Below are positions 1-29,040 of a stretch of DNA of 29,363 nucleotides, piece by piece. The notes beneath the pieces are model-generated. The model was not told the DNA's origin, did not search any database, and saw nothing but the letters and a program-made list of their open reading frames with translations. The position numbers and the translations under genes are program-made. The first letter of the stretch is position 1. Every line of letters begins with the position of its first letter. Source of the stretch: Chiloscyllium plagiosum (Eukaryota); assembly GCF_004010195.1 (NCBI RefSeq), contig NC_057718.1, positions 100,696,411-100,725,773 of the forward strand. Direction: 5' to 3'.

Positions 1-726
1 TCATCTGTGCATTCCTTGGAAATAAAACCATTCCTTGGGGAGAAACCAGTAAGTAACATGACACTGTAACATTCACCAAGTTCACAACATCGAAATGCTA
101 ATTTGTTCCACACACAGAAGACAAAGCCATAAGGCCAGCTTATACTCCCATACCACAATTACACAGAGAGAGGAAAATGCAGAGTTAATGTGGCTGTCTG
201 ACAATGTAGAGGAACTTCCCAGTATTCATGATCCTTGCTGGAGACACCACTACCACACTCGTGGCACCAAGTTAAATACTTACATGAGTTTTCCCCTCTT
301 TATTGTTTAATGAAAATGCCATGGCAACATTCCAAATCCACAATGGATTGATATCACAGACATTTAAAGACAGAAGACAGCCGATTCAGCCCAGTGCTTC
401 ACGCTAGCTACACTAACCCATGTTCACATTCTAAAATATTGTGATTTCTGATCACCCCCACTACATCAAAATTTGTGTTCACTTCTCCAAGTCCAATTTT
501 TAAAACTGACACTTTCTCCTGAATTCTGCTCCCTCCGTCATACAAGTGTTCCCCACGATCAAAGAATGGCTTCCCATGCCTCTGATTATTGTGCTCCTAT
601 TGAGTGAGGAGATTGGTAAGGAGAATGCAAAAATAGAAATTGCTGGAAAAGCTCAACAGGTTTGGCAGCAGCTTGGAGAAAAATCACAGTTAATATTTCA
701 GGTCGAGTGACCCTTCCCCAGAACCA

Positions 727-1045
727 GGCAGCACGGTGGCACAGTGGTTAGCACTGCTACCTCACAGCACCAGAGACCCGGGTTCAATTCCCGCCTCAGG
801 CAACGGTGTGTGGAGTTAGCACATTCTCCCCGTGTCTGCATGGGTTTCCTCCGGGTGCTCCGGTTTCCTCCCACAGTCCAAAAATGTGCAGGTTTGGTGA
901 ATTGGCCATGCTAAATTGCCTGTAGAGTTGCTAAATTGCCTGTAGAGTTGGGTGAAAATGTGGGGGAATGGGTCTGGGTGGGTGGCAGGTCAGTGTGGAC
1001 TTGTTGGGCCGAAGGGCCTGTTTCCACACTAAGTAATCTAATCTA
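727..1045 (+). mobile_element. HE1/V-SINE-type tRNA-derived SINE, full length
   Basis: A box TGGCACAGTGG, B box GGTTCAATTCC, V-domain (...TGGGTTTCCTCCGGGTGCTCCGGTTTCCTCCCACAGTCC), CR1-like tail ending in (TAATC)n. Confidence 0.9.
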
Positions 1046-1074
1046 AAAACCCTTACTTTCTTTTGGAAAAGAAG

Positions 1075-2056
1075 GATACAGTTATAAAACAAGTAATTAG
1101 GAAGCCAAATGGAATTTTGTCATTTATTGCTAAAGGGATTGAGTTTAAAAGCAGGAAGGTTTTTTTTAAGATTCCCTACTGTGTGGAAACAGGCCTTCGG
1201 CCCAACCAGTCCACACCGACCCTCCTAAGAGCAACCCACCCAGACCCATTTCCCTCTGACTAATGCACCTAACACTATGGACAATTTATCATGGCCAATT
1301 CACCTAACCTGCAAATCTTTGGACTGTGGGAGGAACCCGAAGCACCCGGAGGAAACCCACGGAGACAGGGGGAGAATGTGTAAACTCCACACAGAGTCGC
1401 CCGAGGCTGGAATCGAACCTGGGACCCTGGTGCTGTGAGAAGCAGTGCTAACCACTGAGCCCGTACCGTCCCATATTGCACTTGTATGGGGTGCTGGTAA
1501 GGCTACATCTGGAGTACTGTGTACAGTTTTGGGCTCTTACTTGAGAAAGGATGTAATGCCACTGGAGGGGGTGCAGAGGAGGCTTACTCGGTTGATTTCA
1601 GAGAAGAGGGAGTTGGCTTATGAGGAGAGACTGAGTAGACTGGGATTATATTCATTGGAATTCAGAAGAATAAGAGGGCATCTTATAGAAACATATAAAA
1701 TTATAAAGGGAATGGTTAAGATAGAAGTAGAGAGGATGTTTCCACTGGTGGTGAAACTACAACAAGTGGGCATAGCATCAAGATTAGAGGGAGCAGATTT
1801 AGGACTGAATTGAGAAGGAACTGCTCCAGAGGGTTATAAATCTATGGAATTACTTGCCCAGTGACGTAGTTGACGCTACTTCAGTAAATGTTTTGAAAGC
1901 TAAGATGGAATTTTTTTAAGCAATAAAGGAGTTAAGGGATACGGTGAGAGCACGGGTAAGTGGATCTGACTCCACAAAAAGATCCGCCCTGATCTTACTG
2001 AATGGCAGAGCAGGCTCGAAGAGCCAGACAGCCTACTCCTACTCCTAATTCTTATA
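1075..2056 (+). mobile_element. CR1 LINE 3' end (ORF2 C-terminus plus 3'UTR), interrupted by the SINE at 1168-1472
   Basis: Peptides NGILSFIAKGIEFKS and LEGVQRRLTRLI...YEERLSRLGLYSLEFRR..DLIETYK-like; 3' tail CCTACTCCTACTCCTAATTCTTAT. Confidence 0.88.
1168..1472 (-). mobile_element. HE1/V-SINE-type SINE inserted into a CR1 LINE
   Basis: Reverse complement of the same family. It splits the CR1 ORF2 reading ...GIEFKSRKV / ILHLY... Confidence 0.9.
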
Positions 2057-2479
2057 GTGCTAGAAATTACAAGACTTAAGATTAGACCAAAGCCTATTGC
2101 TATTCAATGTGGACAGTTAAACTACCAATAAGCAAGGGCACATTCACTGTCTCGAAAAATCTTATCAGCTCGTGGGTATAAGCAGTCCAATGTTACTGCG
2201 TTACACTAATTTTGATTTAGATTAAATATGGGACGACGAAGGCCTTTTTTGGCAATCCTCACTCAAAACTCCATTGTCTAGGTACCCAAATCCAACCATC
2301 TCCCGAACAACAGTATGAGATTAAGCCAGGCTGTTTGGAACCATGGTGCCGACGAGTTTTCAACCTTGTGTTTGTGCTATCACCAAGACTGCTTATTTTC
2401 ACTTATCACCCCCCATGTTCACCCATCGCAGAACTTCTGCAAATGAAACTCTCATTCATACCTTTGTTATCAGTACACT

Positions 2480-2970
2480 TGAAAATTCCAATTCATAATT
2501 GGCTGGTTTACTATCATTTCCCTCCCATCAGCTGTCCATTTATTAACACATATCAAGTCCTGTTGCCCATCACTCCTGTGCTTGGTGACCTACCCTGGCT
2601 CCCAGTCAGACTACCAAAGTTCTCATCCAGTTTTCAAATCCATCCATGGCCTCACCCTTTCTTTTCTCTGTCCCACATACCTCAGAGACACGCACTCCTC
2701 TAATGTCATCCTGACCATCCCCAATGTTAATCGGTCTGTTACTGGTAACCATGCCTCCTTTTTCCTCAGCCCTAAGCTTTTGAATTCCTTCCATAAACCT
2801 CTTCATTCTCTACATCACTTTAACACACTTCTTAAAACTTAACTCTCTGACCAAGCCTTTCAGTACCTGCCTTAGTATCTCTTTATGCAATTTGATGTCA
2901 TATCGTGTTTTTTAATTCTTCTCTGAAGCACATTTCATTTCACTGAAGGCCTTTTAGAAATATACTGCTT
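2480..2970 (+). mobile_element. L2-clade LINE 3' fragment
   Basis: PITPVLGDLPWLPV resembles the L2 HITPVLxxLHWLPV motif, followed by FKSIHGL and LLKT. Confidence 0.7.
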
Positions 2971-3231
2971 ACTAAAGATCCATTTTGCCAAATGTTTTTG
3001 TCTTGAACCCATCAGGATAAATTGCAAGCATTTATGTTTTCAAGGAGTTAGATATGACTCTTGTGAATAAAGGAATTAAGGCTTATACAGGGAGGATGAG
3101 ATTAGAATATTGAGCTTGATGATCCCTGATCATTTTAAATGGCAGAGCAGGCTCAAGGTGGTCAAATGTCAAAAAGTGTGGCACTGGTTCAAGTGATCAA
3201 ATGGCCTACCTCCTTCATAATGTCCAACCTT

Positions 3232-3593
3232 GAATTAAAGATGTACAGCATGGAAACAGACCCTTTCGTCCAACTCATCCAACCCAATCTAGTCTCAGCC
3301 TCCCACGCTCCAGGGAAAACAGCCCCAGCCTGTTCAGCCTCTCCCTATAGCTCAAATCCTCCAACCCTGGCAACATCCTTGTAAATCTTTTCTGAATCCT
3401 TTCAAATTTCACAACATCTTCCGATAGGAAGGAGACCAGAATAGCACGCAATATTCCAACAGTGGCCTAACCAATGTCCTGTACAGCCGCAACATGACCT
3501 TCCAACTCCTGTACTTGATACTCTGACCAATAAAGGAAAGCATCCCAAACACTTTCTTCACTATCCTATCTACCTGCAACTCCACTTTCAAGG
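3232..3593 (-). mobile_element. CR1 LINE 3' fragment with internal deletion
   Basis: ORF 3409-3591 reads MLRLYRTLVRPLLEYCVLFWSPSYRK; highly similar to 9090-9390. Confidence 0.9.
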
Positions 3594-3667
3594 AATGGCC
3601 TGTTCCTGCTCCTAACTAGTGTGCTCAAGTTGTAGTGCTCTTGTTGTCCATGTATCTGTGTTATATG

Positions 3668-3768
3668 AGGGGATAGGGGTGGAGAGGGAGAGGGGTGTGA
3701 GAGGGAGGCGGAGGGGGAAAGAGACAGGGAGAGAGAAAAAGTCGGAGAGATAGAGAGAAGGAGAGAGA
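3668..3768 (+). repeat. GA-rich low-complexity tract
   Basis: Near-continuous purine run of degenerate (GA)n next to the ESF1 exon 4 donor. Confidence 0.8.
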
Positions 3769-3825
3769 ATAGGCAGTTTAAAAAACTAGATGGTAAAAAA
3801 CATGGAAAAGTTTTCAAATGCTCAC

Positions 3826-3939
3826 CTTCACAGACAAGATAGCACCTCCTTTGGGGACGAAGGAATTGAACAATACCAACAGGTCCTTTGCCTTTATTTT
3901 ATCCCAATCTATGTTGCAAACTGCTAATCGTCGAGTGAT
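3826..3939 (-). CDS. ESF1: ESF1 exon 4
   Basis: ttttacctcag|[38 protein letters not shown]|gtgagc; 114 nt, phase 0/0, conserved ESF1 segment. Confidence 0.96.
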
Positions 3940-4109
3940 CTGAGGTAAAACAGGATGTGTTATTGGAATCTTGTGAAAATACACCCCCTGCCCAACTTTG
4001 CAAACCATTTCAATGAAAGTTAATAATAAGATAGGATCCTAAAATGTTTATATTTTTACTTAAGACCCGGACGATCAAATGGGAAAAAAAAAACAATTGT
4101 GTGATGTAC

Positions 4110-4414
4110 CGTGTCTGCACGTGGAGCATCCTTAGCTAACTCGCCCCATTCATGTTCAATTTCTGGAGGCTTTGACGATAGGTCATCAAAATAGTCATCA
4201 TCATCAGAGCTTGTTTCAATATTCCCTCTACCCCTGGCTAAGTCGGGACCACTGTCGCTGTCGGTGTCTTCCTCAGATAATTCCTCATCATCTTCACTGT
4301 CTCTGGTTTCTTCACTTTCCTCCTCCTGACTCTGGTGACCCGATCCTGTAGATCTTGCTTCAAACGAGCTGCCTTCACCCTGATTGCTGTCACCTTCGTG
4401 GCTGTCACTGCTTT
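4110..4414 (-). CDS. ESF1: ESF1 exon 3 (acidic region, DSGPDLARG motif)
   Basis: Acceptor ttttgcatttcag|AA (phase 1). Translates to ...EEDTDSDSGPDLARGRGNIETSSDDDDYFDDLSSKPPEIEHEWGELAKDAPRADT, then donor |gtacat. 305 nt. The ORF track reads it in the wrong frame. Confidence 0.95.
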
Positions 4415-4994
4415 CTGAAATGCAAAAACAATTACATGAGTATTTTCATTTCTTAAAAGGCAAGGATCTGTCTTCCAAACAACCATCTATAAAAACAAAA
4501 TGGTGGGATGACATCCTTCATGCAGCAGTTGAAAAAATAGGAAGCGCACAGGAAAGAGTCAACATTTCAGGTCTGTACTCTTCAGCAGATCTTTTGCCAA
4601 GGTTATTCACCCAAAACTTTGATTGTAGTATTCAAGGGTGCCAATTGGTGCACCCCTGTTTCTTTCAGGATGCCAGTATTTGAAAAACTTTACTTTTTAT
4701 TTGTGTTGGTTGGGTCCCATTCCCTTCAAAACAGCTGATGCAAAGATATAAAAATACTTTTAAAAATTGAGCAGCTCACAGAGAATTCAATTAACATTCC
4801 TCAAGTCTGATTTAATCCCTCATGTTTGTGAATGGAATAGTTTTTTTGCCATGAGTTTTTGTTTTCCACAATAATCTTTGATATGGCACTTTATCAAAGC
4901 CTTCTGGAAATTTGGTCCACAGCACATCTTACTTCCTCAAAAGAACTACAAAGAAATGGTCAAACGTGATTTTCCGTTCACAAAATAACAAGAA

Positions 4995-5943
4995 CATAAG
5001 GATGAGAATTTAGGGGACATGGTTAGTAAGTTTGCAGCTAACACCACAATTGGTGGTATAGTGAACAGTGAAGAAGGTTATCCAAGATTACAAAGGGATC
5101 TTGATGAATTGGGTCAATGGGCTGAGGATTGGCAGATGGAGGTTAGTTTGGATAATTGCAAGGTATTGCATTTTGTTTAAAAAAAAACCAAGGGCAGTAC
5201 TTATACAATTAAGAGTAGGGGCCTGAGTAGCATTGTAGAACAGATAGACCGAGGGGTTCAGGTATATAATTCATTGAAACTTGAGTCACAGGTAGACAAA
5301 ATGGCTAAGACGTCATTTAGCATGCTTGCTTTCATTGCTCAGACCTTTGAATATAGGGGTTGGGACATCATGTTGAGGTTGGTCACGGCGTTGGTGAAGC
5401 CTCTTCCGGAGTACCGTGTGCAGTTATTGTTGCTCTTTTATAGGAAGGATATTATTAAACTGGAGAGGGTTCAGAAAAGATTTACCAAGATGTCACCAAA
5501 AGTAGAGGGTTTCAGTTACAAAAATAGACTGGGACATTTTTCACAGGAGCATTGCAGGTTGACGGTGACCTTTGGAGTTTAAAAAATCATTAGGGCATAG
5601 ATAAGGTGAATGACAAAGGACTTTTCTCGAGAAGTTCCCTCGAAGTGTGGAAGTTCAAAACTGGGGACATTTTTAAGGTGAGAGGAGAAAGTTCTACAAA
5701 GGACAGAAGAGGCAACTTTTTTTTACACCGATAATGGTTTGTGTGTGGAACAAACTGCCAGAGGAAGTGGTGGATGCAGGTACAGTTACAATATTTCAAA
5801 AACATTTGGATAAGTATATAATAGGAAAGGTTTGGAGGGATATGGGCCAAATGCAGACAAGTGGGACTAGTATTGTTTGGGATTATGGTCGGTGTGGACG
5901 CGGTAGACCCAAGGGTCTATTTACATTCTGTATGACTCCATAA
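4995..5943 (+). mobile_element. 5'-truncated CR1 LINE (~950 bp)
   Basis: Degraded SKFADDTKIGG-like region; ORFs 5274-5582 and 5734-5943 are CR1 ORF2 C-terminal peptides. Confidence 0.9.
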
Positions 5944-6720
5944 AACTGTAACATATATTTTACCTTTTGGAACTATAAACTGAAATGGAAATTGTATTGC
6001 TAAAAAATTTGAAATACTAGGAGAGATTTACAACTTGGAAAAAAATCAGGTCGTGCACATTTTGTAGGCTGTGAGAGAGAACGTTCCTTTTCGATGCATC
6101 AAGGAGATAGGTTGAGACAGAGTGGCATCAAGAGTCTTTGAGTTAATGAAATTCGGTTTGTTACAAAGCTGAAAGCACAAGGGCAGCTGGAGAAATCCAG
6201 AGCTTGTGAAATGAACATCTCTCTCTCTCTCATCCTCTCTCTATGTGGGGAAAGACAAAAACAAAGCAAGCTTGAAATAGAACTCTACTAAGAAATGACC
6301 TAGATCTGAAAGATTACCTATCAAAGCGAAGAACAACGACCACCTTAAAGACAGCAGCATGTTATAACAAATGGAACTGTGTGAGACAGTGTAATTCATC
6401 CATGAAATCTGTTCTTCTGATCTCTGGAATTTTATTTATTCTCTCTATATTATTTTCTACTCGTAATATCAGCATCAAACCATCTGCCTTTTGTCTGTTT
6501 TAATTATGAATGAGTATGTAGGTATTCTGGAATTTTAAAGGGGCATAGTTTAAGTTACATAGTAGTAGATTAGAAATCCTTTCTTTGCAGTGTCTTTTGT
6601 TAAAATTAACTGTGTTACAACAAATAATTATTTTATGTTAATAATGAAAGCTGGTGTGAATTGTTTTTGTCCTGAACTGCAGTAAGGTGGGTAAATTGGT
6701 CATCTTGATGAAAATTAAAT

Positions 6721-7000
6721 GAGGAGATAGAGAGGATTGCAAATGCTAGAGGGTCAGAATCAATAAAAGTGTGGTGCTGGAAAAGCCCAGCAGGTCAGGC
6801 AGCATCCGAGAAGCAGGTGAATCAATGTTTCGGGCAGGACCCTTCATCAGGACTGGGGAGGGGGAAGGAGGCTGAGAAATATCTTTGCGGAGGGAGGGAG
6901 GAAAACATCTTCAAGGTGGGCATCCTTGGAAGGGTCTTTCACTGTATGGTGAGCAGCAACGAGGAGTTGATGAGGACTGCCGATGCTGGGGGATTAACAT
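6721..7000 (-). mobile_element. Penelope-like terminal-repeat fragment, type A, carrying a hammerhead motif
   Basis: Shares GTGGTGCTGGAAAAGC.CAGCAGGTCAGGCAGCATCCGAG with 11825-12040 and 13580-13670. PLE assignment is inferred from the minimal hammerhead and the inverted-repeat architecture of the family. Confidence 0.6.
6820..6854 (-). ncRNA. Minimal type-I hammerhead ribozyme motif (ESF1 sense strand, intron 2)
   Basis: Minus strand: AGTC CTGATGA A GGG-TCCTG-CCC GAAA CA TT GATT. Core intact, with stem II and a 4-bp stem I (AGUC/GAUU). Confidence 0.65.
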
Positions 7001-8266
7001 GGTGTGAAAGCAGAGCTGGCTCATGATTTGCAAATTAGATTAAAGGTTGGGTCATCAGAGATGCAGTGACAAACATTTAAGGAGTTATTTCAGAACACGC
7101 ATGACAGTTACATTGCAAGGAGTAATTTTATACATTTTGTCATGGCTTGGGGAACTGTGGGGCACAATTATCAGTACACTCTTCCCAGTAACATCATGAC
7201 AAAAGCGATTTTGACTGCAATATTAGCACAAACTTAGTTAAGTGCCCAGCTATTACTTTGTAAATAGTAGCTTCTATCATTTCCCCTATGATAGTCGTTA
7301 AGCTAACTGCCCTGTTCTTCCTGCTCTTTCTCTTCCACTTTTTGAATAAAGGAGTTACATTATCTTCCAATTTAATGGGACCTTCCTGAATCTAGGGAGT
7401 TCTGAAAAACTGAAATCAATGCATCAACTATCTCACTGGCCACTTAGTTTCTGAACTGAGAATGAAGTTCATCGGGATTAACTGATTTATCAGCTGCAGC
7501 TCCAACAATTCATTTCCATGTGGATTGTACTTTTCCTGAGGTCCTTCCTCCCTTCCATTTCCTGACTTATGGGATGTTACTTATGTCTTCACTGCAGAAG
7601 ATACATGTAGAATATCTGTCCAATTCATCTGCCAACTCATTATTTTTCATCATTAATTCTTCAGATTTCCTTCCTTCAGGACAAATGCTCACTTTGTTAA
7701 CTTATTTCTTTTTAAAACATCTACAGCAACTTTCATTATCTTCTTTTTACTTACACATAGTTTTCTCTCTTATTCTAATCTTTGCCTTTTTATTAATTTT
7801 TAAAAATCAATCTTTACTATTTTTAGAGATTGTTCAATATTGTGGCCCACCCACTATCTGCCTTTACACAACTATATGCTTTGTCTTTTAATTTGATACG
7901 ACCTTTAAGGCTTCTGCTTAATTATGGATCGTGGGTTTGTCCTTTGGAATTTATCTTACTCCTTGAAATGTATTTAATGTATATATTCTGAAATATCCCT
8001 CTAAATGTTTGTCACTGCATCTCTGTTTAAATCTAATCTACTTTCAAGCCAAGTTAATTGCCCTTATTTATTTTTTGAACTCCTCTCTCACTCAAGCTGC
8101 ATGTTATATTCAATCATGTTGTTGATTGCTACCTTGTGTTGTCTTTACTGTGAGATCATGAATTAATCTTATCTCATTACATAATACCAGGTCAGGTATA
8201 GCCAGCTCTCTAGAAGGCTGCAGAACACAAAACTAGTGTGAAAACATTCCATGAATTCCTCATTGT

Positions 8267-8584
8267 GGGCGGCACGGTGGCACAGTGGTTAGCACTGCTA
8301 CCTCACAGCGCCAGAGACCCGGGTTCAATTCCCGCCTCAGGCGACTGACTGTGTGGAGTTTGCACTTTCTCCCCGTGTCTGCGTGGGTTTCCTCCGGGTG
8401 CTCCGGTTTCCTCCCACAGTCCAAAGATGTGCAGGTCAGGTGAATTGGCCATGCTAAATTTCCCATAGTGTTAGGTAAGGGGTAAAATGTAGGGGTATGG
8501 GTGGGTTGCGCTTCGGCGGGTCGGTGTGGATTTGTTGGGCCGAAGGGCCTGTTTCCACACTGCAATGTAATCTAATCTAATCTA
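8267..8584 (+). mobile_element. HE1/V-SINE-type SINE, full length and young
   Basis: GGGCGGCACGGTGGCACAGTGG start, intact A/B boxes, many retained CpGs, (TAATC)n tail. Confidence 0.92.
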
Positions 8585-8719: not shown

Positions 8720-10310
8720 AGAGATGCATAACACAGAAATAGACCCTCCGGTCCAATTTGTCCATGCCGAACAGATATCCCAACCCAATCCAGTCCCGCT
8801 TGCTAGCATCTGGCCCATATCCCTCTCAACCCTTCCTATTCATGTACCCATCTAGATATCTTTTCAATGTTGCAATTGTACCAGCCTCCACCAGTTCCTC
8901 TGGCAGCTCATTCCATATACGCACCACTCTCTGCGTGAAAAAGTTGCCCCTCGGACCTCTTTTATATCTTTCCCCTCTCATCCTAAACCTATGCCTTCTA
9001 GTTCTGGACGCTCCCACCCCAGGGAAAAGACTTTATCTATTTAACCTATCCATGCTCCTCATGATTTTATAAACCTCTATGAGGTCACCCCTCAGCCTCC
9101 GATGTTCCAGGGAAAACAGCCCAGGCCTATTCAACCTCTCCCTATAGCTCAAATCCTCCAACCCTGGCAATATCCTTGTAAATCTTTTCTGAACCCTTTC
9201 AGGTTTTACAACATCCTTCCAATAGGAAGGAGACCAGAATTGCACATAATATTCCAACAGTGGCCTAACTAGTGTCCTGTACAGCCGCAACATGATCTCC
9301 CAATTTCTATACTCAAAACTCTAGCCAATATAGGAAAGCATTCCAAATGCCGTCTTCACTATCTGATCTACCTGCAACTTCACTTTCAAGGAACTATGAA
9401 ACTGCACTCCAACCTTGTTCTTTGTTCAGCAACACACCCTTGGACCTTACCATTAAGTGTATAAGTCCTTCTAAGATTTGCTTTCCCAAACTGCAGCACT
9501 TAGCATTTATCTAAATTAAACTCCATCTGCTACTCCTCAGCCCATTGGCCCATCTGATCAAGATCCCGTTGTAATCGGAGGTAACCCTCCTCTGTCCACT
9601 ACACCTCCAATTTTGGTGTCATCTGCAAACTTACTAAGGATACCTGCCATGTTCATATCCAAATCATGTATATAAATGATGAAATGTAGTGGACCCAGCA
9701 CCAATCCTTGTGCCACTCTACTGGTCAAAGGCCTCCAGTCTGAAAAACAACCCTCCACCATCACCCTCTGTCTTTTATCTTCGAGGCAGTTCTGTATCCA
9801 AATGGCTAGTTCTCCCTGCATTCCACAAGATCTAACCTTGCTAATCAGTCTACCATGGGGAACCTTGTCGAACGCCTTACTGAAGTCCATATAGATCACG
9901 CCCACCGTTCTGCCCTCAATGCTCTTTGTTACTTCTTCAAAAAACCCAATCAAGTACATGAGACATGATTTCCCACGCACAAAGCCATGTTGCGTATCCT
10001 TAAACAGTCCTTGCCTTTCCAAATACATCTAAATCCTGTCCCTCAGGATTCCTTCCAACAGCTTGCCCACCAATGATGTCAGGCTCACCGGCCTATAATT
10101 CCCTGGCTTGTCCTTACCACCTTTCTTAAATAGTGGTACCACATTAGCCAACCTCCAGTCTTTCCTGCACCTCACCTGTGACTATCAACAATACAACTAT
10201 ACAGCAAGGGGCCTGGCAATCACGTCCCTAGCTTCCCACAGAGTTCTTGGGTAAATCTGATCAGATCCTGGGGATTTATCCACCTTCATGCATTTCAAGA
10301 CATCCAGCAC
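8720..10310 (-). mobile_element. 5'-truncated CR1 LINE (~1.6 kb) with disrupted reverse transcriptase
   Basis: ORF 9558-10028 contains QHGFVRGKSC, VIYMDFSKAFDKVPH, QGLVLGP and KFADDTK; frameshifts and stops present. Confidence 0.95.
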
Positions 10311-11229
10311 TTCTTGCCTTTATTATTTCTCATCCCTACCCAAGCCATTTTGATATTCTGCCACTCAACTTAGGTTGTCTCTTTCCATTATGTTAAATTG
10401 AACTAACTAACAGAGCCACCCCTCCATCTTTTCCTTCGGTCTTTTCTAAAGGCCCTGTACCCTTAAATGTTCAGGTCCCAATCCATGCCATCCTGCAGCC
10501 CTGTCTCTGTAATGGCTATCAACTCATTTATTTATTTCTATTTACATTCCTATTTTAAATGCTCTGTGCAGTCAGACACAGAATTTTCAGCTTCATTTTA
10601 TCCTCTTTTTGTAACTTATCGACGTATTTGTTGCTTTACTCTTATATTTGTACTGTCCCTCCCTCCTTGTCACAGTCTGTTTAACATTTCTTGTGTTAAT
10701 ACAATTCTCATTTGCCTTGCTTGCATACCTTCCCAAATTTGATACTTGCTGCCATCAATTTAGTTTATAATTCTCTTGCCTCCCTAGTTGTTCACCATTC
10801 ATGAACACTGGCTGTAGCATGGTTCAGATGCAGGCTACTGCAAATGCACAGATCTAAATGTACCTGTACACTCAATTAATTCTGGCCTCTTGTGCCAAAG
10901 TTGAAGGCGACACTTAAACGCAGTTGCCAGATACATTTGTAGAAAAACTTCCTGCTCTTCTTCAAACACGGTCCAAAAACCTTGTGTCTGTGAAGGCACA
11001 GAAATGTTGGTACCTCCAACAATGCCACACTCACTTAACACGGCATTGGATTGTTAGGTTGGCATATGGACTGAGCTCAGTAGTGAGGTATGGACTTAGC
11101 TCGGTAGTGAGGCATGAATTCACAACATTCTCATTCACAGTAATGAACGCGACCAACTCAATCAAGCTTAAACCTGTAATGAGATCTCAAAAATGAACAA
11201 AGCTGTCAACAAGAAACTTGATGTCCAAA

Positions 11230-11824: not shown

Positions 11825-12040
11825 TCGAGAGTGTGGTGCTGGAACACCACAGCAGGTCAGGCAGCGTTCAAGAGGCTGGAGAATCGACGTTTTGGGTATA
11901 AGTACAGGAAAGGGCTGATGAAGGGCTTTTGCCCGAAATGTTGATTCTCCTGCTCCTCGAATGCTGCCTGACCTGCTGTGCTTTCCCAGCACCACACTCT
12001 CGACTCTGATCTCTAGCATCTGCAGTCCTCACTTTCTACC
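11825..12040 (+). mobile_element. Palindromic Penelope-like element, type A, with hammerhead core at 11915-11942
   Basis: 78-bp inverted arms 11825-11902 and 11926-12003; CTGATGA A GGGC-TTTT-GCCC GAAA TG TT. Confidence 0.7.
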
Positions 12041-12994: not shown

Positions 12995-13480
12995 AAACAT
13001 ACAGATCAAGAGCAGAAGGTCATTCAGGCCCTCGAGCCTACTCCGCCATTCAATAAGATTATAGCTGATCTGATTGTAACCTCAAATCCGGATTCCCCCC
13101 ATAAAAACCGAAAGAACTGCAGATGCTATAAATCAGACAAAAACAGAAATTGCTGGAAAAGCTCAGGTCTGGCCGGAGAGAAATCAGAGTTGACATTTTA
13201 GATTGAGCGACCCTTCCTCAGTTCTGACTCAGCCAGACCTACTGAGCTTTTCCAGAAATTTCTATTTTTGTCTATAACCTTTCACCCCCTTGCTTAACAA
13301 GAATCTACCTACATTTGCCTTAAAAATACTCAAGGACTCTGTTTCCTTCGTTGTTTCAGAAAGAGACCACGATCCTTAGTCGTTTCAGAGAGAGAGACCA
13401 CGATCCTTAGTGAGAAATGATTTCACTGATCTCAGTTTTAAATGGGTCACCCCAATCATTTGAACAGTCCTTGAGGAATA
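12995..13480 (-). mobile_element. CR1 3' end interrupted by a palindromic element (13102-13273)
   Basis: Reverse CR1 tail (GAGCAGAAGGTCATTCAGGCCCTCGAGCCTACTCCGCCATTCAATAAGAT) that resumes after 13273. Confidence 0.7.
13102..13273. mobile_element. Palindromic Penelope-like element, type B (degenerate hammerhead)
   Basis: Inverted arms ~13134-13172 and 13232-13273; minus strand CTGAGGA A GGGTC...AAAA TG TC. Related to 630-726. Confidence 0.55.
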
Positions 13481-14449
13481 AACATATTTTGCTTTACCCT
13501 CACAGCACCTTCCAATGAAATCCCAACTAAGAACAGGCAATCTACTACCAAGCCTTTATACATGCAGTCCCTTGACAATTGCTTATGAAGGGCTTATGCC
13601 CGAAATGTCGATTCTCCTGCTCCTCAGATGCTGCCTGACCTGTGTTTTTCCAGCGTCACATTTTCGACAATATCAAATAGTTGGCAAAAATGATCTTATT
13701 TGCATTAAGCTCTACATGGCCATAGTGCCTGTTAATTAAATCTGGAACCTGCCTTGTGTAAAATCACTGTTATTAGCTTGTCCTTCCACCAGTTAGACCT
13801 ATTGCTGAGGTCCACTTTGCAGTATTTCAAATGTCCACAATGCCCAAAAGCAGCTCTGCCTTGGCTGTGATAGTTATAAGAAGATTACTGTGGAAAACTC
13901 CACAGAAATATTCCCAAAAAGACGTCTTGTTGATGAATGCCCCATTGATCTATATGGGCAGACAAAAATAACAACTGCCGATTGATATACAAAAAGCACT
14001 GTATGTCAACTGTTGCTTTGAAAACCATATATTTCCAATTTTGGGCAAATATTAATAGAAATGTTGGAAACACTCAGCAGGTCAGGCAGCATCAGTGAAC
14101 AGAGCAACACAACTCGTCAGTTTTAACAAAAGATCGTCAAATTGATAACTCTCTTTCTCTCATTATCAATGTTACCTGACCTGCTGAAAGTTTGCCAATG
14201 CTTATAGTATTTATTGGTTTTTTGTGCTGTAAGTCATTTGCTGTAACTGGAGCTGGAACAACATTTGATGGTTTCTCTGTCACTGAATAAACTATTCAGT
14301 TAATTCTGTAGTGTAAAAGTATGATTGTCATTAGCGAGTTTTGCGAGGTCATTGTCATTGCCAAATCATGAATTGCTTGGTTTACTTTCAATACTTCTCT
14401 CATGATCTTTATGAGATGCAGGTATCGACCGTTACTGTTTCATTATTCT

Positions 14450-15219: not shown

Positions 15220-15377
15220 AGATGTGATGGGACCAGTGTTGGACTGGGGTGGGTGGACAAAGTCAGAAATCACACGACATGAGGTTATAGTCCAACAAGC
15301 GTATTTGAATGCTCAAGCTTTCAGAGTGCTGCTCCTTCATCAGGTTGGACTATAACCTGGTGTCGTGCAACTTCTGA
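15220..15377 (-). mobile_element. Palindromic Penelope-like element, type C, hammerhead core on the minus strand
   Basis: Arms 15263-15296 and 15344-15377; minus strand CTGATGA A GGAG-CAGCA-CTCT GAAA GC TT (15343-15315). Confidence 0.65.
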
Positions 15378-15684: not shown

Positions 15685-16110
15685 GTTTGACCGACAGGGA
15701 GAGGCTGAATAGGCTGGGGCTTTATTTTCCCTGGAGCACTGTAGGCTGGGAGGGTGACCTATATAAAATCATGAGGGGCATGGATAGGGTAAACAGCCAA
15801 GGTCTTTTCCTCAAGGACTCCAAAACTAGAGGGCAAAGGTTTAAGGTGAGAGGGGAAACATTTAAAAAAGGACCCGAGAGATAACTTTTTCATGCAGAGG
15901 GTGGTGCATGTACGGAATGAGCTGCCAGAGGAAATGGTGGAGGCTGGTACAATTACAACATTTAAAAGGTATCTGGATGGGTATATGAATTGGAAGGTTT
16001 TAGAGAAATATGGATCAAATGCTGGCAAATGGGATTGGGACAGTTTAGGATTTCTAGTCAGCATTTACGAGTTGGACCAAAGGGTCTGTTTCTGTCCTGT
16101 TTGACTCTAC
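15685..16110 (+). mobile_element. CR1 3' fragment
   Basis: RERLNRLGL and QRVVHVRNELPEEMVEAGTITTFKRYLDGYM; same family as 8720-9300. Confidence 0.9.
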
Positions 16111-16854: not shown

Positions 16855-16990
16855 GGCACCTCTTCCACCGTGGCGGGGAGAGGGGGGGGTGATTAGTTTC
16901 CAGCTCCGCTCAACCTCTTCCGACACCGACCGCCGCTCTCCCTGAAAACCCCCCTCTCCTCTCCTATCCGTGGTGAATGGTTCGGTCGGG
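16855..16990 (-). other. ESF1: Putative non-coding exon 1 of ESF1
   Basis: Exon 2 begins at a splice acceptor, so an upstream exon is required. A minus-strand donor GGTGCC|gtaagc (16854-16849) lies in the CpG island just beyond the NRF1 site. The TSS boundary is a guess. Confidence 0.5.
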
Positions 16991-16997
16991 GTCGCCA

Positions 16998-17009
16998 GGC
17001 GCATGCGCC
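16998..17009. promoter_or_regulatory. NRF1-type binding palindrome
   Basis: Perfect 12-bp palindrome GGCGCATGCGCC containing the NRF1 core GCGCATGCGC, at the centre of the divergent promoter. Confidence 0.75.
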
Positions 17010-17173
17010 GTGCTGGCGTGCTCAGCTCCTTCCAGTCGGCGGGGAGGCTCGGGTGAGTTTATATCCGGTCGCAGCTCCCGGAGAGCGGGAGAGAAAGGAC
17101 AGAGGGAAGGGCGCCAGTGTTACCGTCACGCTTTCCGCGGCCTTCCCCCACTCAGTCGGCGCCCTGGGGATAG

Positions 17174-17416
17174 ATGAGCGGGATTCCCTGCCGACTCCGC
17201 TGCTGGCCCGCCCGGTATGATGGGTGCCTCTGGTTTTTCTCCAGCCTCGGCCATCCTTCGGGCTCCGGGAGCATCGCCCGCTCCACCGGGTGGCGGCCTT
17301 GGTCATCGAGGTTCGACAGCCCGATGAACGTGTTTGACAGAAAGATGAAACGGCGGCAGAAAAACTGGGCGTCCTCCCTCCCCGAAAGCGGAAAATATGA
17401 TTATCTGAAAGAGGAG
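17174..17416 (+). CDS. NDUFAF5: NDUFAF5 coding exon 1 (probable mitochondrial presequence plus MNVFDRKMKRRQKNWA)
   Basis: ATG directly preceded by an in-frame TAG. 81 codons ending ...KYDYLKEE, donor |gtttgc; the C-terminal half matches recalled NDUFAF5. Confidence 0.93.
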
Positions 17417-19757: not shown

Positions 19758-20619
19758 GTAACATTAGCTCAGATAGTGGCAAATACTTTATTTTAAATCT
19801 GAAGGCGATGTATAAATGTTCATTCTCATTGCAGATCTGGTTTTAAGTTGTATCATCTTTAGTTCTCTGCCCAAAGGAAGGTCTGACCCACAGTGCTGTG
19901 ATCCCCACCACAGGAAGGGCAAAGAGCCAGGTCCCAAATCTATCCAGGCAGACTAGGATCAAATCCCGTGATGTCACCACCAATCTGAAGCAAGATGCTT
20001 CAAGGTTCTTTCCATCACATGGCTGATCGGGATAACCAGGGAGACGCCTTGCCCACTCTTACTGCCCGCGACTGCACTGACATGTGTTGGTAGCATTTGC
20101 AAGTTGAAAGTTGATCTACTTGGCTACATAGTGATCACACCTTCCTTGGCCGTTGGACTTGAACCCAGAGCTTCTGGCTCAGAGTCAGAATGCTATCCAC
20201 TGCACTCCAATGGTGCCTATTTAAATCACATACCATTTTAAAGTTTCTCCTTTTTCCTGTATTAAAAAATGGTTTAAAATTTGTAGCTCTTAGAGTGTAG
20301 AAAATATGAGCAGTTGGGTTATTGCAGCCTTCCAAAATGATATGTGATGTAGTTGTGCTTGCTGGTTGGTACAGTTTAGGCTGGTTTCTGAGTTAAATTT
20401 GAATTCCACCTGATATCACACTTTAACTTTCTAGTTCTTACACCAGAAGTTCTGCACAATTTTTTGTGGTATCAGACTTCTGTAATTCTCCACTTATTAT
20501 GTCTTTGTATGAACTGTCCTGAGCTACAACACTGCCATTAAACTCTGGATTAGTCAGGGTGTCTAATATTACACCAGCTGTTCTCTATGTGACCATAAAT
20601 GAATCAAACTCTTGAACAT

Positions 20620-21160
20620 TGTTTAGGCCATTTTTGGAATACTGCGTTCAGATCTGGTCTCCCTCCTTTTGGAAGGACGTTGTGAAACTTTAAAGGGTTC
20701 AGAAAAGATTTACAAGGATGTTGGCAGGGTTGGAGGGTGAGCTATGGGGAGATGCTGAATAAGCTAGCACTGTTTTCCCTGGAGTGTCGGAGACTGAGGG
20801 GTTACCGTAGAGGTTTATAAAATCATGAGGGGCATGGAGAGGGTGAATAGCACCCCCCCCCCTCCAAAAAAAAGCTAGAGGTCATAAATACAAGGTGAGG
20901 GGAGAAAGATTTCAAAGAAACCTAAAGGACAACATTTTCATGCAGAGGGTGGTGTGTGTGGAATGAACTGCCAGAGGAGGTGGACGAGGCTGGTACGTTT
21001 ACAATATTTAAGAGGCATCTGGATGGGTGTGTCAGTAGGAAGGGTTTAGAGGGATATGGGCCATATGCTGGCAGATGGGATGAAATTAATTTAGAATATC
21101 TGGTCAACATGGACAAGTTGGACCGAAGGTTTGTTTCTGTGCTGTACAACTCTATGACTC
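20620..21160 (+). mobile_element. CR1 3' fragment
   Basis: LEYCVQIWSP-like start and WNELPEEVDEAGTFTIFKRHLD. Confidence 0.9.
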
Positions 21161-22596: not shown

Positions 22597-22714
22597 GTAC
22601 ATGAAGTGTGATTTTTGAACAACCTCAGCAAACTGAGTAAAACCAACTGACTGGTTCCCATGGGTATAGTTAAATCCTTATGATAGTGTTGACATAATAC
22701 TGTGCAATCAAGAT

Positions 22715-23070
22715 CATAAGAAATAGAAAAGGGTTAGGCTGTTCATTCCTCAAGCCTATTCCACCATTCAATAGAATAATGGCTGATCCACATTCCTGCC
22801 CTTTCGCAGTAACCCATGATTGCTCAATTGATCACAAATCCATCTGTCTCAGCCTTAAATATACATAAAGACTCTGGCCCCACAGCTCTGGGTCGCATGG
22901 AATTCCAAAGAAACTCAAACCCATCTGAGAGAAGAAATTCCTCCTCATTTCTATTTTAAATTGATGCCCCTTAATTCCGTTCCAGTCCCAGACTGCCATG
23001 AGGGGAAGCAACCTCTGTGTTTAACCTGTCAAGCTGTTAGAGATTTCAATAAGATCGCCTCTGCATCTTC
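22715..23070 (-). mobile_element. CR1 3' fragment
   Basis: Reverse tail CATAAGAAATAG...CCATTCAATAGAATAATGGCTGATC; similar to 12995-13480. Confidence 0.7.
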
Positions 23071-23228
23071 AAAGATGGAGGTGTGATTTGCAAAGGATAT
23101 AGATTTCAATTTTACAAAAGCATTTGATTTAAATTGATAGACAATTGAAAACCAAATTCATCCCAGATTACTTGTAATTGAAAAGATTGAAAACAACGTT
23201 TATTAAAATCTGTTTCTCTTATTTCTAG

Positions 23229-23268
23229 TTTGCATTGGGTTAATGACCTCCCTCGTGCATTCAAACAG
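23229..23268 (+). CDS. NDUFAF5: NDUFAF5 exon 6
   Basis: ttctag|LHWVNDLPRAFKQ|gtgaga; 40 nt. Confidence 0.96.
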
Positions 23269-24879
23269 GTGAGATTACCTTCTCTAAATGAGAAGATCCA
23301 AAACAAATTGACTATACTTTTATTGCTTAACTAATGTTGGTTTTGAAAATCGTGTTTAATAGGTAATCTTAATAACATGATTTTGTAATTGTGATTTCAG
23401 TGTTTCCGAGAGATCAATCTTTTTTGTATAAACACATTCAGTTCTATATAAGCAACCATCATTATGTTACTTGTGTTATAATCTCGAAAACAACAATCTA
23501 TAATTATGATCCATCGGCATGTAGCAATGAAGCATAGAAAGTGACAGAAGTAACATTTTGGCCTTGTTTCTATTCTGACAAGCCATATAAAGATGTTATA
23601 GCCCAATGCTTTATATTTGTTACATCTGTGATCAAAATCATTCATCTTTATTTGATTTGAATAAACATTCAGTCCACTTATCATCTAACATTAGTTTCCT
23701 GGGATAGTGCTTTCACTTTTCCCAAAAGGGAATGCACATACGGACAACCAATTCTTCATATTTTGTATTTGTCAACAGGAGAACACATCTGTGAAAGTGG
23801 TCTCACCCATTTTACTTTCCTGAAATGGTATTGTTTTAGGATTCTGTCTGTTTTGATAAAAAATACACAGTTGGCTATGCATCTAACTATGGTTTGGACA
23901 AGGTTTCACATTTGTGATAAGAAAGAGAAGTGACCAGTCTAATAGGGTGGGCTATTAAAATAACTGTGTGATGTATATCATATTTAACAAGTTGTTCATA
24001 ATGATTCAAAGAGGGAAACCCATTTGAGATATGAATGAAAGCTTACACAAAATCAAGATTTTGCATAGAGGTGCATGGAAGGAATGATGGTATCAAAGGA
24101 AGGGAGGGAAAAAAAGAGGCCATAGTATAAGGTATACGTTCTCATGGGGTAGTGGGTTTAGGACTGGAAGCAGTTACAGGAAGAGCTAGTCCATTAAGAA
24201 ATTTAAACAGGATAAGGTTTGTAAATTGTGAATGTTAGGAGACTGGAATTCAATCTATTCAGTTCAGTTCAACTTTATTGTCTATTCAAAAATTCTAAGA
24301 CCACAATAGAGCAGAGCTGGCCATTCAGCCCATCGAGTCTGCTCTCGCATTCAATGAGATTATGGCTGACCCGATAATCCTGATCTTCACTTTTCTGCTT
24401 TTTCACTGTGGATACACTGTTTATACATTAGAATTGAAAATACATGAATAATCACATTTATAAATTATGGTGAAAGGTGTATGAATTATATCTACTTATA
24501 GTTTAAATTTTAAATGAGTGGCATATGGGTATTTATCAATTTTTGTGAAGGGGTTTACAAATTAACTCAGTCACTCTTAATGAGAATCATGGTTTTTAGC
24601 CATGTACTGCTTCCTGGAGTGTTAATGTAAGTTTATTTATTCAGTGGCAACTTTATTATTGGAGAGAAAAAATGTAAAACCATGAGCTTAACAGAGTCTA
24701 AGATGAGCAATTATTTCAATTTAGTTAAAAAGTTTCTTGGGTTCAGTTTGAAAGAGATCTGACTGGGGTCAGAAGCAGGTGTTCTTGCTTATGTCACAAG
24801 ATTTGGAGCAGAAGTGCCATCGACCCATCAGGAATATTCTTTCTTTCATTGTGATCATGACTGATATGATACTCCTCAA

Positions 24880-25890
24880 CTCCACTTTCCCACTTAATCA
24901 CGCTCTCAGTTCTGAATATTGTCAAATCAAGTGGTGAATGGTAGTGGACAATGAGGTAATTCACTGAAGGTGGAGGAGGCTCCACTAATATCCCAGTTTC
25001 AATGATTGGAGAGTCCAGCACATCAGTGCAAAAGGTAAAGTGGAAGTGTTCGTATCTGTCTTCAGGTCTCTTCCCAAGCTCCCCAGCATCACACATGCTA
25101 GCCATCGAAAATTCAATTCGTTCCATGTGCTATTTTTAAAAAAAACAGCTGAAGATACTGGATACTGAAAAAGCTATTAGCTATAACAACTCTGCAGTGA
25201 TTGTACTGAAGGCTTGTGGCACAGAACTGGGGCCAACCCCCTAGTCAAGCTGCTCCAACAGCTACAACACTGGTGTCCACCTGAAAATGAGGGAAATTGC
25301 CTAGGTATGTCCTGAGCACAAAAACAGGACAAATCCAACCTGGCTAATTACTGCCCTATCAACTCTTGGTGTCGGAAAACTGGTGGGAGAGGTGATCATT
25401 AGTGCTATTAAGTGACACTGGGAAAGGAATAACCTTCTCACTGTCACTTGATTTCAGTTCTGCCAGAGCCACTCAGCTCTTATCCACATTGCAACTTTGG
25501 CTTAAACATGGACAAAAGAGTTGAATTCTAGGGGTGAGGTGAGAGTGACTGCCCTTGATGTCAAAGCAGCATTTAATTGAGTATGGCATCAAGGAGCCCT
25601 AGCAAAATTGGAGTCAACAGAAATCTAGGTGAAAATGTTCCCCTGGCTAGATTCATATTGAGCACGAAGGAAGATGATTGTGATGGTTGGAAATCAATCC
25701 AGGATACCTCTGCAGGAATTCCTCAGAGGATGTCCTCAGCCCAATCTTCCAAACAACACTGTGTCCCCCGAACCTCAAGGACTGCAGTGGTTCAAGAAGG
25801 CAGCATGCCACTACCTTCTCCAGGACACTTGGGGATGGTCAATAAATGCTGGCTCAGCCGTAGACACCTACATCTCATGGATCAATGAAA
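24880..25890 (+). mobile_element. Degraded LINE ORF2 (RT) fragment plus 3' tail
   Basis: KQDKSNLANYCPI (NYRPI motif) and VRVTALDVKAAF (LDxxxAFD motif) remnants. Confidence 0.7.
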
Positions 25891-26602
25891 AATCTCACTG
25901 GCAAACAATATTCTTTACAAGTAAAAGAATATTTGATGAAAATCTTTTAGAATCAATGATAATGTTATTTATAAGTGACAATAACACCAAAAATAACTAA
26001 AAGATAAAATATCTGCAATTCAGAATTTTATCTGGGATATTTTCAATGCCACAGCTTTATATAACAGTTGTATTTGAATTCAGAGTTGACCTATAGAAGC
26101 ACATTTGAATTGTTGTAAACAAAACTTTCAAAGTCACAATTTCTGGTTGTGTTTGTGATTCAGCAATTACAATTATTAATTCCTTTGTCAGTGCAACTTC
26201 AAGTTTTGTCGGGCCGGTTGTCACAATTTATATCCACATTCCGACCTTCCGAGTGAGATGACTGATTTGGGATGATACAGTGACGTTCAAAACTGAAATT
26301 AGCAACATAACTCTCAGAAACAGACCCTGAAAATGAACTAACACCCAAGCAAAAATAACAGTAAACAGGGCAGTGTTAAACAAGGATTATGTGTTTCGGA
26401 ATGATGAGGTACATTAGGAGATTCCACAGGAACGATGTTGAACAAGGTTGTTTTAATTTCTCATCATCTTGTAGCCCAAAATTACAGAATTGTTGGGTGA
26501 GGATATCTGGTTAAAACCTTCACCGACATGCACTTTGCTGGCTTGTAGTTTTCTCAGTTGTGGTGCCTGTACTGTTTACATTGATTATCCGGCACTTTGC
26601 AG

Positions 26603-26800
26603 ATTCATTCTTCCTTGAAAGCAGATGGAGTGTTCGTTGGTGCCATGATGGGAGGGGAGACACTATATGAACTTCGTTGCTCTCTACAGCTGGCAGAACT
26701 GGAGCGTGAAGGAGGATTTGCACCCCACGTATCACCATTTACTGCTGTTACAGACTTGGGAAATCTGTTGGCGCAAGCAGGATTTACTATGCTAACCGTG
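26603..26800 (+). CDS. NDUFAF5: NDUFAF5 exon 7
   Basis: ttgcag|[66 protein letters not shown]|gtacgt; 198 nt. Confidence 0.97.
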
Positions 26801-27467
26801 GTACGTCAAACTAAATCACTGCTAATTATGAAAAATTGTGTAACAAATTGAGATGTTGAACGATTCATACAATACTTTTTTAGCTGCTGTAACTGCTTTG
26901 CAGCTAAAAGTGATTTCCTACTTTTTTCATCACGTACCATCTCAATTCACTGGCCAAGAAGATAGACAAGAGAAATGGCCTTTGACTTCTGATAGTGTCA
27001 TTTCTTCCAACTGTCAAGAGTAAAATGGCTCGTCTTTGTTAAATGTCCTCTCATCCTGGTGGTAAGATGAAGAACTTGTTGAGATGAAGAACTTTTTGTT
27101 AACCCCATCAGATTAATGTCATGTCTTATTACACTTTGTTAGCTAATCAATAATCCCTTACTTGCGTGAGTGACAACAGTATATCCATAAATAAACTAAA
27201 TCATTTTTGTACTGTCTGCTGGTAATAAGTGAGTTTGAGTTCGTCATCAACAGAAAACAGTGGACTTTCAGCTTAAACTGAGAACGAAAGCAAACCTCTG
27301 GCCTGCCCTTCTAGATTAGTCAGACATTAAACAATTATTGTTTGGCCTTGTGAAATTAGGAAACTAAAAAGGGAAGAATATGAGTTGATTGGTTCAGTTA
27401 TTTAAATATTAGTATTGCATCAAAAAGAAGTGTTTTATATTAAACTGCATTTGTTCATTTCGTACAG

Positions 27468-27528
27468 GACATTGATGAGATCCTGGTCAATTATCCAGGA
27501 ATCTTTGAAGTAATGGAGGACTTGCAAG
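27468..27528 (+). CDS. NDUFAF5: NDUFAF5 exon 8
   Basis: gtacag|DIDEILVNYPGIFEVMEDLQ(G)|gtgggt; 61 nt. Confidence 0.96.
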
Positions 27529-27881
27529 GTGGGTATAGATGTGTGTCACACTGTTACAACTTAAATGCAAACTGATTTAGTGACAGGATGCAGTGTAATT
27601 GAGGACTTCAGTCATTTGAAATTTAATTTCCAAAATATTCTCTAAAAATATAATTACAAATAGTAAACTCAACAGAAGTTGCTAAAAATCGATGAAACAG
27701 CTTTCTGTTTATTGCTCTCTGTGAACCATTTCAGTTGAGGTGTACCAATATACCGACACCGAAGACAATTGTGGAATGAAACAGGACAAATAGGCCACTT
27801 GGCCCATCATGTCTATGCTGGAAACTTGATGAGAATTTTCTTTTTAAAGTCTATCTTATTGTATTCGCTTTGAATTTTAAG

Positions 27882-27965
27882 GTATGGGGGAGAGCAATTG
27901 TGCTTGGTCCAGGAAACCTTTGTTGCACAGGGACACGATGCTGGCAGCTGCAGCAGTTTACAAAG
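27882..27965 (+). CDS. NDUFAF5: NDUFAF5 exon 9
   Basis: tttaag|(G)[27 protein letters not shown](E)|gtgaga; 84 nt. Confidence 0.96.
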
Positions 27966-28862
27966 GTGAGACCCTGAGAGTTAGAGTTCAAATTGAATTT
28001 GGTGTGAATTGAAACATAGGTTGTTTATTAATGGTTCCACAAATTATCAGTAACAAAATCAAATTGTGAAAATAGCTTCGGTTTAAAGTTGTAGTTCAAT
28101 TAGAAGAACTCTTCATCTTCTCTTCATCAAGTGAAACTTTGCAATTTTTTAAAAATTACTGAAATAAGTTTGACTGCATTTTGCTTGCCTGCAATGATAC
28201 AGTACTTGATACTTGGCTGAAATTGTAGGTTAAAGTGAGGACTGAAATTGCCGACTTGCATGGGTCCTGACCCGTATGCAGGACAGGAAAAGCTATGTCG
28301 CTTTTATTGGGAGTGCTTTTTAATTAGACCTGAGCTGAGAGACTTGAGTGGTAAGCCTTCATTGGATAATGACAGTAAAGCTAAGCTTTAGTTCTCAAAA
28401 CCTTTTTTTAAAAAAAAACTGGTTAATTTGGAGTAATTTGCACAAAGAATTCTTTCCCATATACTTTTTAAATTCAACAGTTTCATCTGGGTGTTCACTT
28501 AAAATATTTTTGTGCATATCCGAATATTAGATGGTGCATTTGATCCAACCTGTGAATTTTTCTAATTGAAATTCTACAATTTTACCTTCATCCAAAGACA
28601 TATAGTGGTAAGATTAGATCACTAATCGGATAGTAGAGGGTGGGCTGCCATTGTGCAAAGCAGATGATGGAACAGTGTAAATCAGTCAGCAAAGTGGGGT
28701 GACTGATCACACAGCATGTCCCTCTCCTTTAACTTGCTGGCCATACCCCATACTAATAACAGCATGAGTTGTGAACTTGCCATTATTTTTGAAGTTTACT
28801 AACTATCCTCCTGAGCTTGCCAGCAATGGTTTCTATTTGTTGCTATCTATTCTAAAGTAGCC

Positions 28863-29040
28863 ATGATGTGGAGGTGCTGGTATTGGACTGGGGTGGACAA
28901 AATCAGAAGCCATACGACACCAGGTTGTAGTCCAATAGGTTTATTTGACCTTCACTTGACGAAGGAGCAGCGCTCTGAAAGCTTGTGATTTCAAATAAAC
29001 CTGTTGGACTATAACCTGGTGTCATGTGACTTCTGATTTT
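28863..29040 (+). mobile_element. Palindromic Penelope-like element, type C, hammerhead motif in the loop (28952-28988)
   Basis: 50-bp arms 28899-28948 and 28991-29040 (45/50 complementary); TCAC TTGACGA A GGAG-CAGCG-CTCT GAAA GC TT GTGA. Confidence 0.7.

Follow-up and report, generated by a model that had tools for sequence, protein, structure and literature searches.

Penelope-like elements (PLEs) of the Neptune and Nematis groups, which carry a GIY-YIG endonuclease (EN+ PLEs), are distinguished in the available text of PMC8557442 by a CX2-5CxxC linker ahead of that domain and by a CCHH motif. For a PLE of the anole, the available portion of PMC11167929 reports that in vitro both target strands are cut, that reverse transcription starts at two internal sites bracketing the tail, and that uncut RNA is used. 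The present analysis concerns short palindromic elements with hammerhead motifs in a 29,363-nucleotide stretch of the shark Chiloscyllium plagiosum genome (contig NC_057718.1, positions 100,696,411 to 100,725,773; hereafter the window), which a sequence-only reading had taken for a separate, non-autonomous, ribozyme-bearing mobile RNA system. The link between PLEs and hammerheads, the inverted arm and the tail are all already published, and the claim of a new mobile ribozyme system fails. With a probability of about 0.72, the elements are instead short insertions of the hammerhead-bearing pseudo-long terminal repeat (pLTR) of EN+ PLEs, flanked by target-site duplications (TSDs) and each likely to have been formed anew rather than copied from a hairpin master.

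The genome census that underlies this reading covered 120 10-kb stretches, taken at round coordinates of the large contigs (1,152,775 bases sampled of a 3.56-Gb genome), arms being called by BLAST against eight family references, a procedure that old or unmodelled families escape. It returned 397 arms in 312 insertions, namely 85 head-to-head pairs and 227 single arms, with 0 tail-to-tail pairs; end statistics were compiled from 386 arms, type D (11 arms) being excluded. The resulting 271 insertions per Mb, which the eight insertions in the 29.4 kb of the window match in density, extrapolate to ~960,000 insertions and ~300,000 hammerhead cores genome-wide, pLTR arms amounting to about 4% of the bases sampled. 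When three window copies served as DNA search queries, each yielded 3,600-4,600 first-look candidates. The high copy number proposed from the sequence alone was thereby borne out (312 insertions in 1.15 Mb), but the proposed spread through introns left no intron-specific signal, the density of the window being that of the genome.

Arm positions are counted relative to C3 of the hammerhead, and the tail is the 31-38 nt that separate the two fixed sites at which arms have their outer ends. Among the 85 pairs, the tail was present in one arm in 68, in both in one and in neither in three, with 13 unscorable, and either arm of a pair could be the longer. The core was reached by both arms in 30 pairs, by one arm in 37 and by neither in 18; sequence loss was central, the outer ends constant, and 84 distinct combinations of arm ends were recorded. 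TSDs, scored in 66 of the 85 pairs and in single arms only if these started between -13 and +7, were found in 35/66 pairs and 16/65 single arms as against 1/400 mismatched-flank controls; they measured 9-25 bp, mostly 12-16 bp, were 66% AT, and passed in two of the eight window insertions (11825-12040 and 28863-29040). The same head-to-head layout was seen at a scale of 3.7 kb in locus L284, with a 14-bp TSD (13/14 match).

A hairpin master predicts shared centres and losses at the outer ends; the differing centres and central losses suggest that the pairs were probably not copied from one. This bears directly on the earlier proposal, now improbable, that hammerhead hairpin RNAs are transcribed and retrotransposed as non-autonomous units in the manner of short interspersed nuclear elements (SINEs) or retrozymes. 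The very high copy number, about 270 insertions per Mb, would suit such units, as would the repeated appearance of a centre among the sequences that best match one copy, solo pLTR copies with the promoter retained, which could be sources, and one window copy that is a deletion derivative common to three other loci. Against these stand the 84 of 85 arm-end combinations that differ, with fixed outer ends and central losses, the single arms that form 227 of the 312 insertions, the predicted folds, which pair the ribozyme arm with its antisense, and an ORF-bearing parent (ORF, open reading frame) for each type. A non-autonomous hairpin family would share one master structure, centre included, which the pairs, with 84/85 combinations distinct, do not. 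The separate mobile RNA system is not supported, in view of the ORF-bearing parents, the differing centres and the 3.7-kb layout of L284.

A miniature inverted-repeat transposable element (MITE) derived from a DNA transposon was rejected on the grounds of the one-sided tail, which makes the ends asymmetric, and of the long, variable TSDs; duplications of the DNA-transposon kind, which the sequence-only reading had named as evidence against itself, were not seen, and those present fit retrotransposition. A possible link to MER6 found no support in the available text of PMC5753468.

The PLE origin suggested earlier was upheld for every type, each of which is the pLTR of an element encoding reverse transcriptase (RT) and GIY-YIG. 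In locus L283, an open frame of 754 aa that contains RVT_1 (E 9e-8), a C-x4-CxxC linker and GIY-YIG (E 2.5e-4) runs directly into a type A1 pLTR, and type A follows the endonuclease (EN) in four sampled loci. In one type B locus a GIY-YIG end lies upstream of the pLTR; a search with that end gave 110,700 candidates, and in 27 of the 30 candidate loci examined a pLTR was located within 620 nt after GIY-YIG (B in 24, E in three, by the author's own reading). Two type C1 loci, L033 and L056, have 1.4 kb in common past the tail, which codes for a broken RT bearing the DKG motif; in L196 and L255 type C is situated downstream of EN, and an EN piece was located upstream of C1 in one of 20 loci. The A1 frame contains a complete CX2-5CxxC-type linker with two core cysteines and downstream histidines, and the B, E and C translations contain the CxxC half of the linker with the core cysteines. 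Pfam searches at E<0.01 gave no match on six of eight broken ORF pieces, and PDB searches gave no useful match. Judged from these translated frames, the parents are Neptune/Nematis-type EN+ PLEs as defined in PMC8557442.

A fourth PLE family, type D (L099, L111, L143), which does not occur in the window, is without the CxxC linker and is Penelope/Poseidon-like; its sampled arms were single in 11/11 cases and extended far upstream in 7/11, without stubs or palindromes like those of the other types. Tandem repeats were recorded in two A1 frames, as in-frame units of about 39 aa on the N-terminal side (L279:2383-5061) and as 25-aa units inside EN (L197), both of which may be assembly artefacts beside gaps. 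The tails of types A and B end, right before the ORF region, in a pyrimidine tract plus AG resembling a splice acceptor, and that of type C ends at the ATG of the ORF.

The hammerheads with CTGANGA and GAAA segments that the sequence-only reading had described were confirmed genome-wide, 97 cores being found in the sampled bases as against 0-3 in each of 10 shuffles (44 as against 0-2 in five shuffles for the first 579 kb), of which 73 had a palindromic stem III and 57 also at least three of four stem I pairs, a combination seen 0 times in all 10 shuffles. Complete ribozymes, on the other hand, were found in none of the eight window insertions: CTGANGA/GAAA is kept in only three window cores (11915+, 6850- and 15343-), and core, stem I and palindromic stem III never occur together. 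An Rfam search of the window at E<=10 returned 11 sub-threshold microRNA or small nucleolar RNA matches and no hammerhead family.

As had been noticed, the stems differ between types and yet pair. Stem II reads GGGC/GCCC in A, GGGTC/GACCC in B and GGAGC/GCTCC in C, and stem I reads AGTT/AACT in B, TCAC/GTGA in C1 and AGCT/AGCT in E. The AGTC/GATT attributed to stem I of type A holds for the 6850 copy and a few close relatives, the common form being ATTC/GATT with a U-U mismatch and that of one subfamily ATTC/GAAT. Stem III, in family references and intact copies, is ACGT or AGCT; the palindromic stem III and the extra nucleotide after A9, both remarked upon earlier, were supported, and the hammerheads covary between families. 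At the family level, the core, the covarying stems I and II and the palindromic 15.2-16.2 of a minimal type-I hammerhead are all present, and by its sequence the motif is that published ribozyme with an extra nucleotide after A9, self-cleavage being predicted. In the type E pLTR (L170, L173, L177, L124) a compensatory U3-A8 core occurs, a natural covariation inside the catalytic core and a variant known from Schistosoma (PMC4209133, available text).

Minimum-energy folding, applied to four natural copies in monomeric and dimeric form, failed to recover the hammerhead and is uninformative for such short helices. For each of four window palindromes tested, the predicted folds were long arm-to-arm hairpins on both strands, and the ribozyme arm of a read-through hairpin RNA is predicted to be paired with its own antisense. 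A 2017 paper reportedly described how small PLE hammerheads cleave as dimers.

The inner ends of the arms define a wall at the 5' edge of the hammerhead. Inner starts of the 386 arms fell in -13..+7 in 176 cases (8.4 per nt), in -119..-14 in 42 (0.4 per nt) and in +8..+70 in 118 (1.9 per nt), and 49 arms extended at least 120 nt upstream, into the 3' untranslated region; arm-start density at the wall was thus ~20x that just upstream. In each of the seven subfamilies of types A, B, C and E, a TATA-like box precedes a boundary adenine by 29-33 nt. This adenine stands in an initiator-like setting and either is the first base of helix I or lies just before it; it falls at -4 in A, B and E, at -7 in C1 and at -8 in C2. 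For a type A1 copy in public runs, the strongest inner loose end fell exactly at A(-4) (152 reads in X21 and 122 contigs in X16), with further loose ends at the tail end and the tailless end. By way of contrast with the wall, the ribozyme cleavage site showed no pile-up, either of arms (three ended there, as against 0-8 per surrounding position) or of read starts and ends in public runs. Contig joints in which the hammerhead is repeated, from -4 to slightly beyond the cleavage site, were considered as a sign of cleavage and set aside, ATTC microhomology on both sides fitting them instead. Taken together, this pattern suggests that the arms reflect run-off copying of uncut RNA from its transcription start.

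It was also considered that the wall marks some other fixed RNA end, such as a splice acceptor or processing site at the 5' edge of helix I, which appears about as improbable as transposition of hairpin units. In the available text of PMC4209133 an intron of Drosophila virilis Penelope ends at the 5' end of helix I, and shark types B and E do have a pyrimidine tract plus AG just upstream of the core; however, types A and C show the same wall without AG, and a spliced RNA would reach into a constant exon, whereas the flanks are heterogeneous (consensus agreement 0.32-0.42).

On the reading preferred here, that of PLE insertions formed anew, the TATA-like promoter in the pLTR would start an RNA at the first base of hammerhead stem I, and the PLE protein would nick the two target strands ~12-16 bp apart. 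Reverse transcription would then start inside the RNA at two sites bracketing the tail, as for the anole PLE in vitro. A start in the upstream pLTR, 90-135 nt from the RNA 5' end, would let the cDNA run off after one arm: priming of one strand would give a single arm, and priming of both would give two arms, one tailed and one tailless, with imprecisely joined inner ends. Longer copies would follow from a start in the downstream pLTR. The template RNA would be uncut, cleavage not being required for the stubs, as such short insertions may be called.

The main rival for the second arm is fold-back priming, in which that arm arises by self-priming of a single cDNA or from an antisense template; this is unlikely, although clearly less so than the two alternatives above, and the insertion would still be a PLE product made de novo. 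Fold-back has been proposed for rotifer PLEs (PMC3846280, available text), and some centres resemble short fold-backs of the adjoining arm. The arms of a pair also share 189 variants from the family reference over 5,703 sites as against 678 unshared, a proportion that fits a single template but subfamily structure too. The two arms nevertheless end at the two different fixed outer sites in 68/85 pairs, either being able to be the longer, single arms with either end occur with TSDs, and in vitro both strands are cut, with extension from two neighbouring sites on the RNA (PMC11167929, available portion).

Several observations weigh against insertion anew by run-off from a transcription start. 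The box of type A is a weak TTTATC/TTATC; the wall stretches from about -12 to 0; and the modal inner ends (-3/-4 in A, -3/-5 in B, -6/-8 in C1, scattered in C2) follow the families only roughly in their shift. The RNA run showed no site at which many molecules begin, its library type being poorly suited, and the X22 RNA run gave 0 reads. The X21 reads derive from numerous copies and from both strands and continue into flanks that are unrelated, and are thus no evidence of autonomous transcription; the species of the run may also differ from that of the window. An extra cap-derived G was weakly seen (15/33, p about 0.02 under an assumed background). About one in two pairs and three in four single arms show no scorable TSD, and central losses could have arisen after insertion. 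Finally, an AAGGG centre before the core recurs in roughly half of the 30 sequences that best match 11825-12040 and could be inherited; that set of matches is biased to its query, and the presence of this centre in two subfamilies fits a recurring joining step.

It is an even chance that the transcripts of these PLEs open with the hammerhead as their first structure, and that an internal RT start ~100 nt from the cap gives constant stubs of the strong-stop kind, with priming from one target strand or from both. If so, the stubs would be a fossil map that records, for at least seven subfamilies, the promoter, the nick spacing and both RT start sites, and the ribozyme would act on the RNA 5' end, for example in decapping or the control of translation, rather than in producing the insertion template. 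The stubs predict a transcription start at the first base of helix I, RT starts 31-38 nt apart, nicks 12-16 bp apart and an uncut template, and so bear on the integration route of PLEs and on the role of their hammerhead. Palindromes of this sort can easily be mistaken for MITEs or microRNA hairpins.

The search of the window with family references located 13 pLTR arms in eight insertions (Table 1). The sequence-only reading had listed about eight elements plus a palindrome without a core, and eight of its nine sites are indeed pLTR pieces, including that palindrome, at 14055-14200, both arms of which stop short of the core as claimed. The remaining site, 4500-4680, was unconfirmed, its best match over 16 family and strand tests being 19 nt, with a score equalled by 6/200 shuffles; it may be a very old remnant of this repeat. 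The hairpin shape ascribed to all the elements applies to five insertions, which are two-armed, but not to two single arms (628-724 and 13578-13668) or to one head-to-tail copy (6721-7000).

Table 1. Insertions of pLTR sequence in the window (coordinates within the window; arm positions relative to C3).
Position	Strand	Type and form	Arms	Core and flanks
628-724	-	type B, single tailless arm	-3..+95, 87% identity; starts ~3 nt before core	core broken (A6 to G), stem III decayed; tRNA-like SINE adjoins at 727; no TSD found in the flanks searched
6722-6990	-	type A, head-to-tail derivative	pLTR arm 6722-6858	core and stem I intact, stem III non-palindromic
11825-12040	+	type A, two-armed	inverted tailless arm 11825-11902; tail-bearing arm 11915-12037	core intact, stem I 5' strand lost at junction, stem III decayed; TSD 13 bp, 12/13 matching
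13102-13272	-	type B, two-armed	tail-bearing arm from -6; short inverted arm without core	core broken (G12 to A)
13578-13668	+	type A, single tailless arm	-4..+90 of the A3 reference; starts at about -4 (predicted +1)	core broken; TSD below threshold
14054-14197	.	old B/E-like, two-armed	+40..+91 and +31..+77	neither arm reaches core
15221-15377	-	type C1, two-armed	tail-bearing arm; short inverted arm	tail-bearing arm with intact core and palindromic stem III, stem I 5' strand missing
28863-29040	.	type C1, two-armed	minus tail-bearing arm halts before core; plus tailless arm starts at -6	plus arm carries core with C3 to T; TSD perfect 12 bp

The copy at 6721-7000 consists of a partial tail and an ORF 5' fragment joined head-to-tail to upstream pLTR sequence, followed by hammerhead and tail, and its junction is common to three other loci (L262/L267, L263, L265), in one of which, L262, BLAST indicated two units in tandem and TRF no array. 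From its sequence it looks like a non-autonomous, retrozyme-like deletion derivative, the only such copy in the window. The head-to-tail units, each with a hammerhead, that characterise retrozymes were absent from seven of the eight window insertions, and 6721-7000 is a partial tandem. In the available text of bioRxiv 10.64898/2026.07.22.740005, retrozymes are reported in the sole chondrichthyan included.

A second locus, L062, matches window 13102-13340 together with its flanks (88%), possibly as a duplication, an assembly duplicate or a copy within another repeat. The window has a GC content of 41%, and the exons of an ESF1-like gene lie on its minus strand, the nearest named Atlas cluster being ESF1 (0.91), which gives a weak lead. 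A further gene, spliced and on the plus strand, is presumably NDUFAF5-like. Between two divergently pointing host genes, positions 16900-17400 are GC-rich and likely to form a shared bidirectional promoter. Copies of an abundant tRNA-like SINE occupy 727-1049, 1177-1471 and 8265-8584, one of them adjoining the 628-724 arm, and fragments of long interspersed nuclear elements, which we take to be CR1-like, lie in both orientations at 1440-1990, 3244-3600, 5000-5940, 8730-10330, 15690-16110 and 20610-21160.

A literature search, with most subscription papers and supplements outside its scope, returned nothing on shark PLE palindromes or on an arm wall at the hammerhead edge. The closest described systems are the EN+ Neptune/Nematis PLEs which, in the available texts of PMC8557442 and PMC3846280, share with the shark elements the DKG-motif RT, the CX2-5CxxC linker and the C-terminal GIY-YIG with two core cysteines, as well as the hammerhead pLTR, the head-to-head inverted arm, the one-sided tail of 30-40 bp and the TSD. 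Unlike them, most shark copies are reduced to the arms alone, at 90-230 bp; their TSDs are mostly 12-16 bp as against 8-10 bp in the rotifer examples, and a description of the sharp wall at the hammerhead 5' edge was not found in the available parts of those two papers.

The minimal hammerheads of metazoan PLEs, as given in the available text of Cervera and De la Pena 2014 (PMC4209133), have the same core, the extra nucleotide 9/10.1, G10.1-C11.1, the palindromic 15.2-16.2 and a short helix I, and likewise form many covarying families, mostly of single dispersed copies. The shark motifs differ in having a helix II of 4-5 bp in types A-C and, in the commonest type A, a U-U mismatch within helix I; the portion of that text available does not name sharks. 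With Poseidon of Anolis carolinensis in vitro (PMC11167929, available portion), the shark elements would share two internal RT starts bracketing the tail, the shark starts being inferred, the cutting of both strands and the use of uncut RNA, and the AT-leaning targets reported there parallel the 66% AT of the shark TSDs. Poseidon nonetheless belongs to a different clade, Penelope/Poseidon elements being without the CxxC linker, and its ORF starts in stem II, whereas that of shark type C starts at or after the tail. Animal non-LTR (long terminal repeat) retrozymes (PMC7229834; bioRxiv 10.64898/2026.07.22.740005) are short PLE-derived units with type-I hammerheads, and 6721-7000 and L262 share their head-to-tail form; the other seven window insertions are single or head-to-head and would therefore give no transcript with two ribozymes in the same sense.

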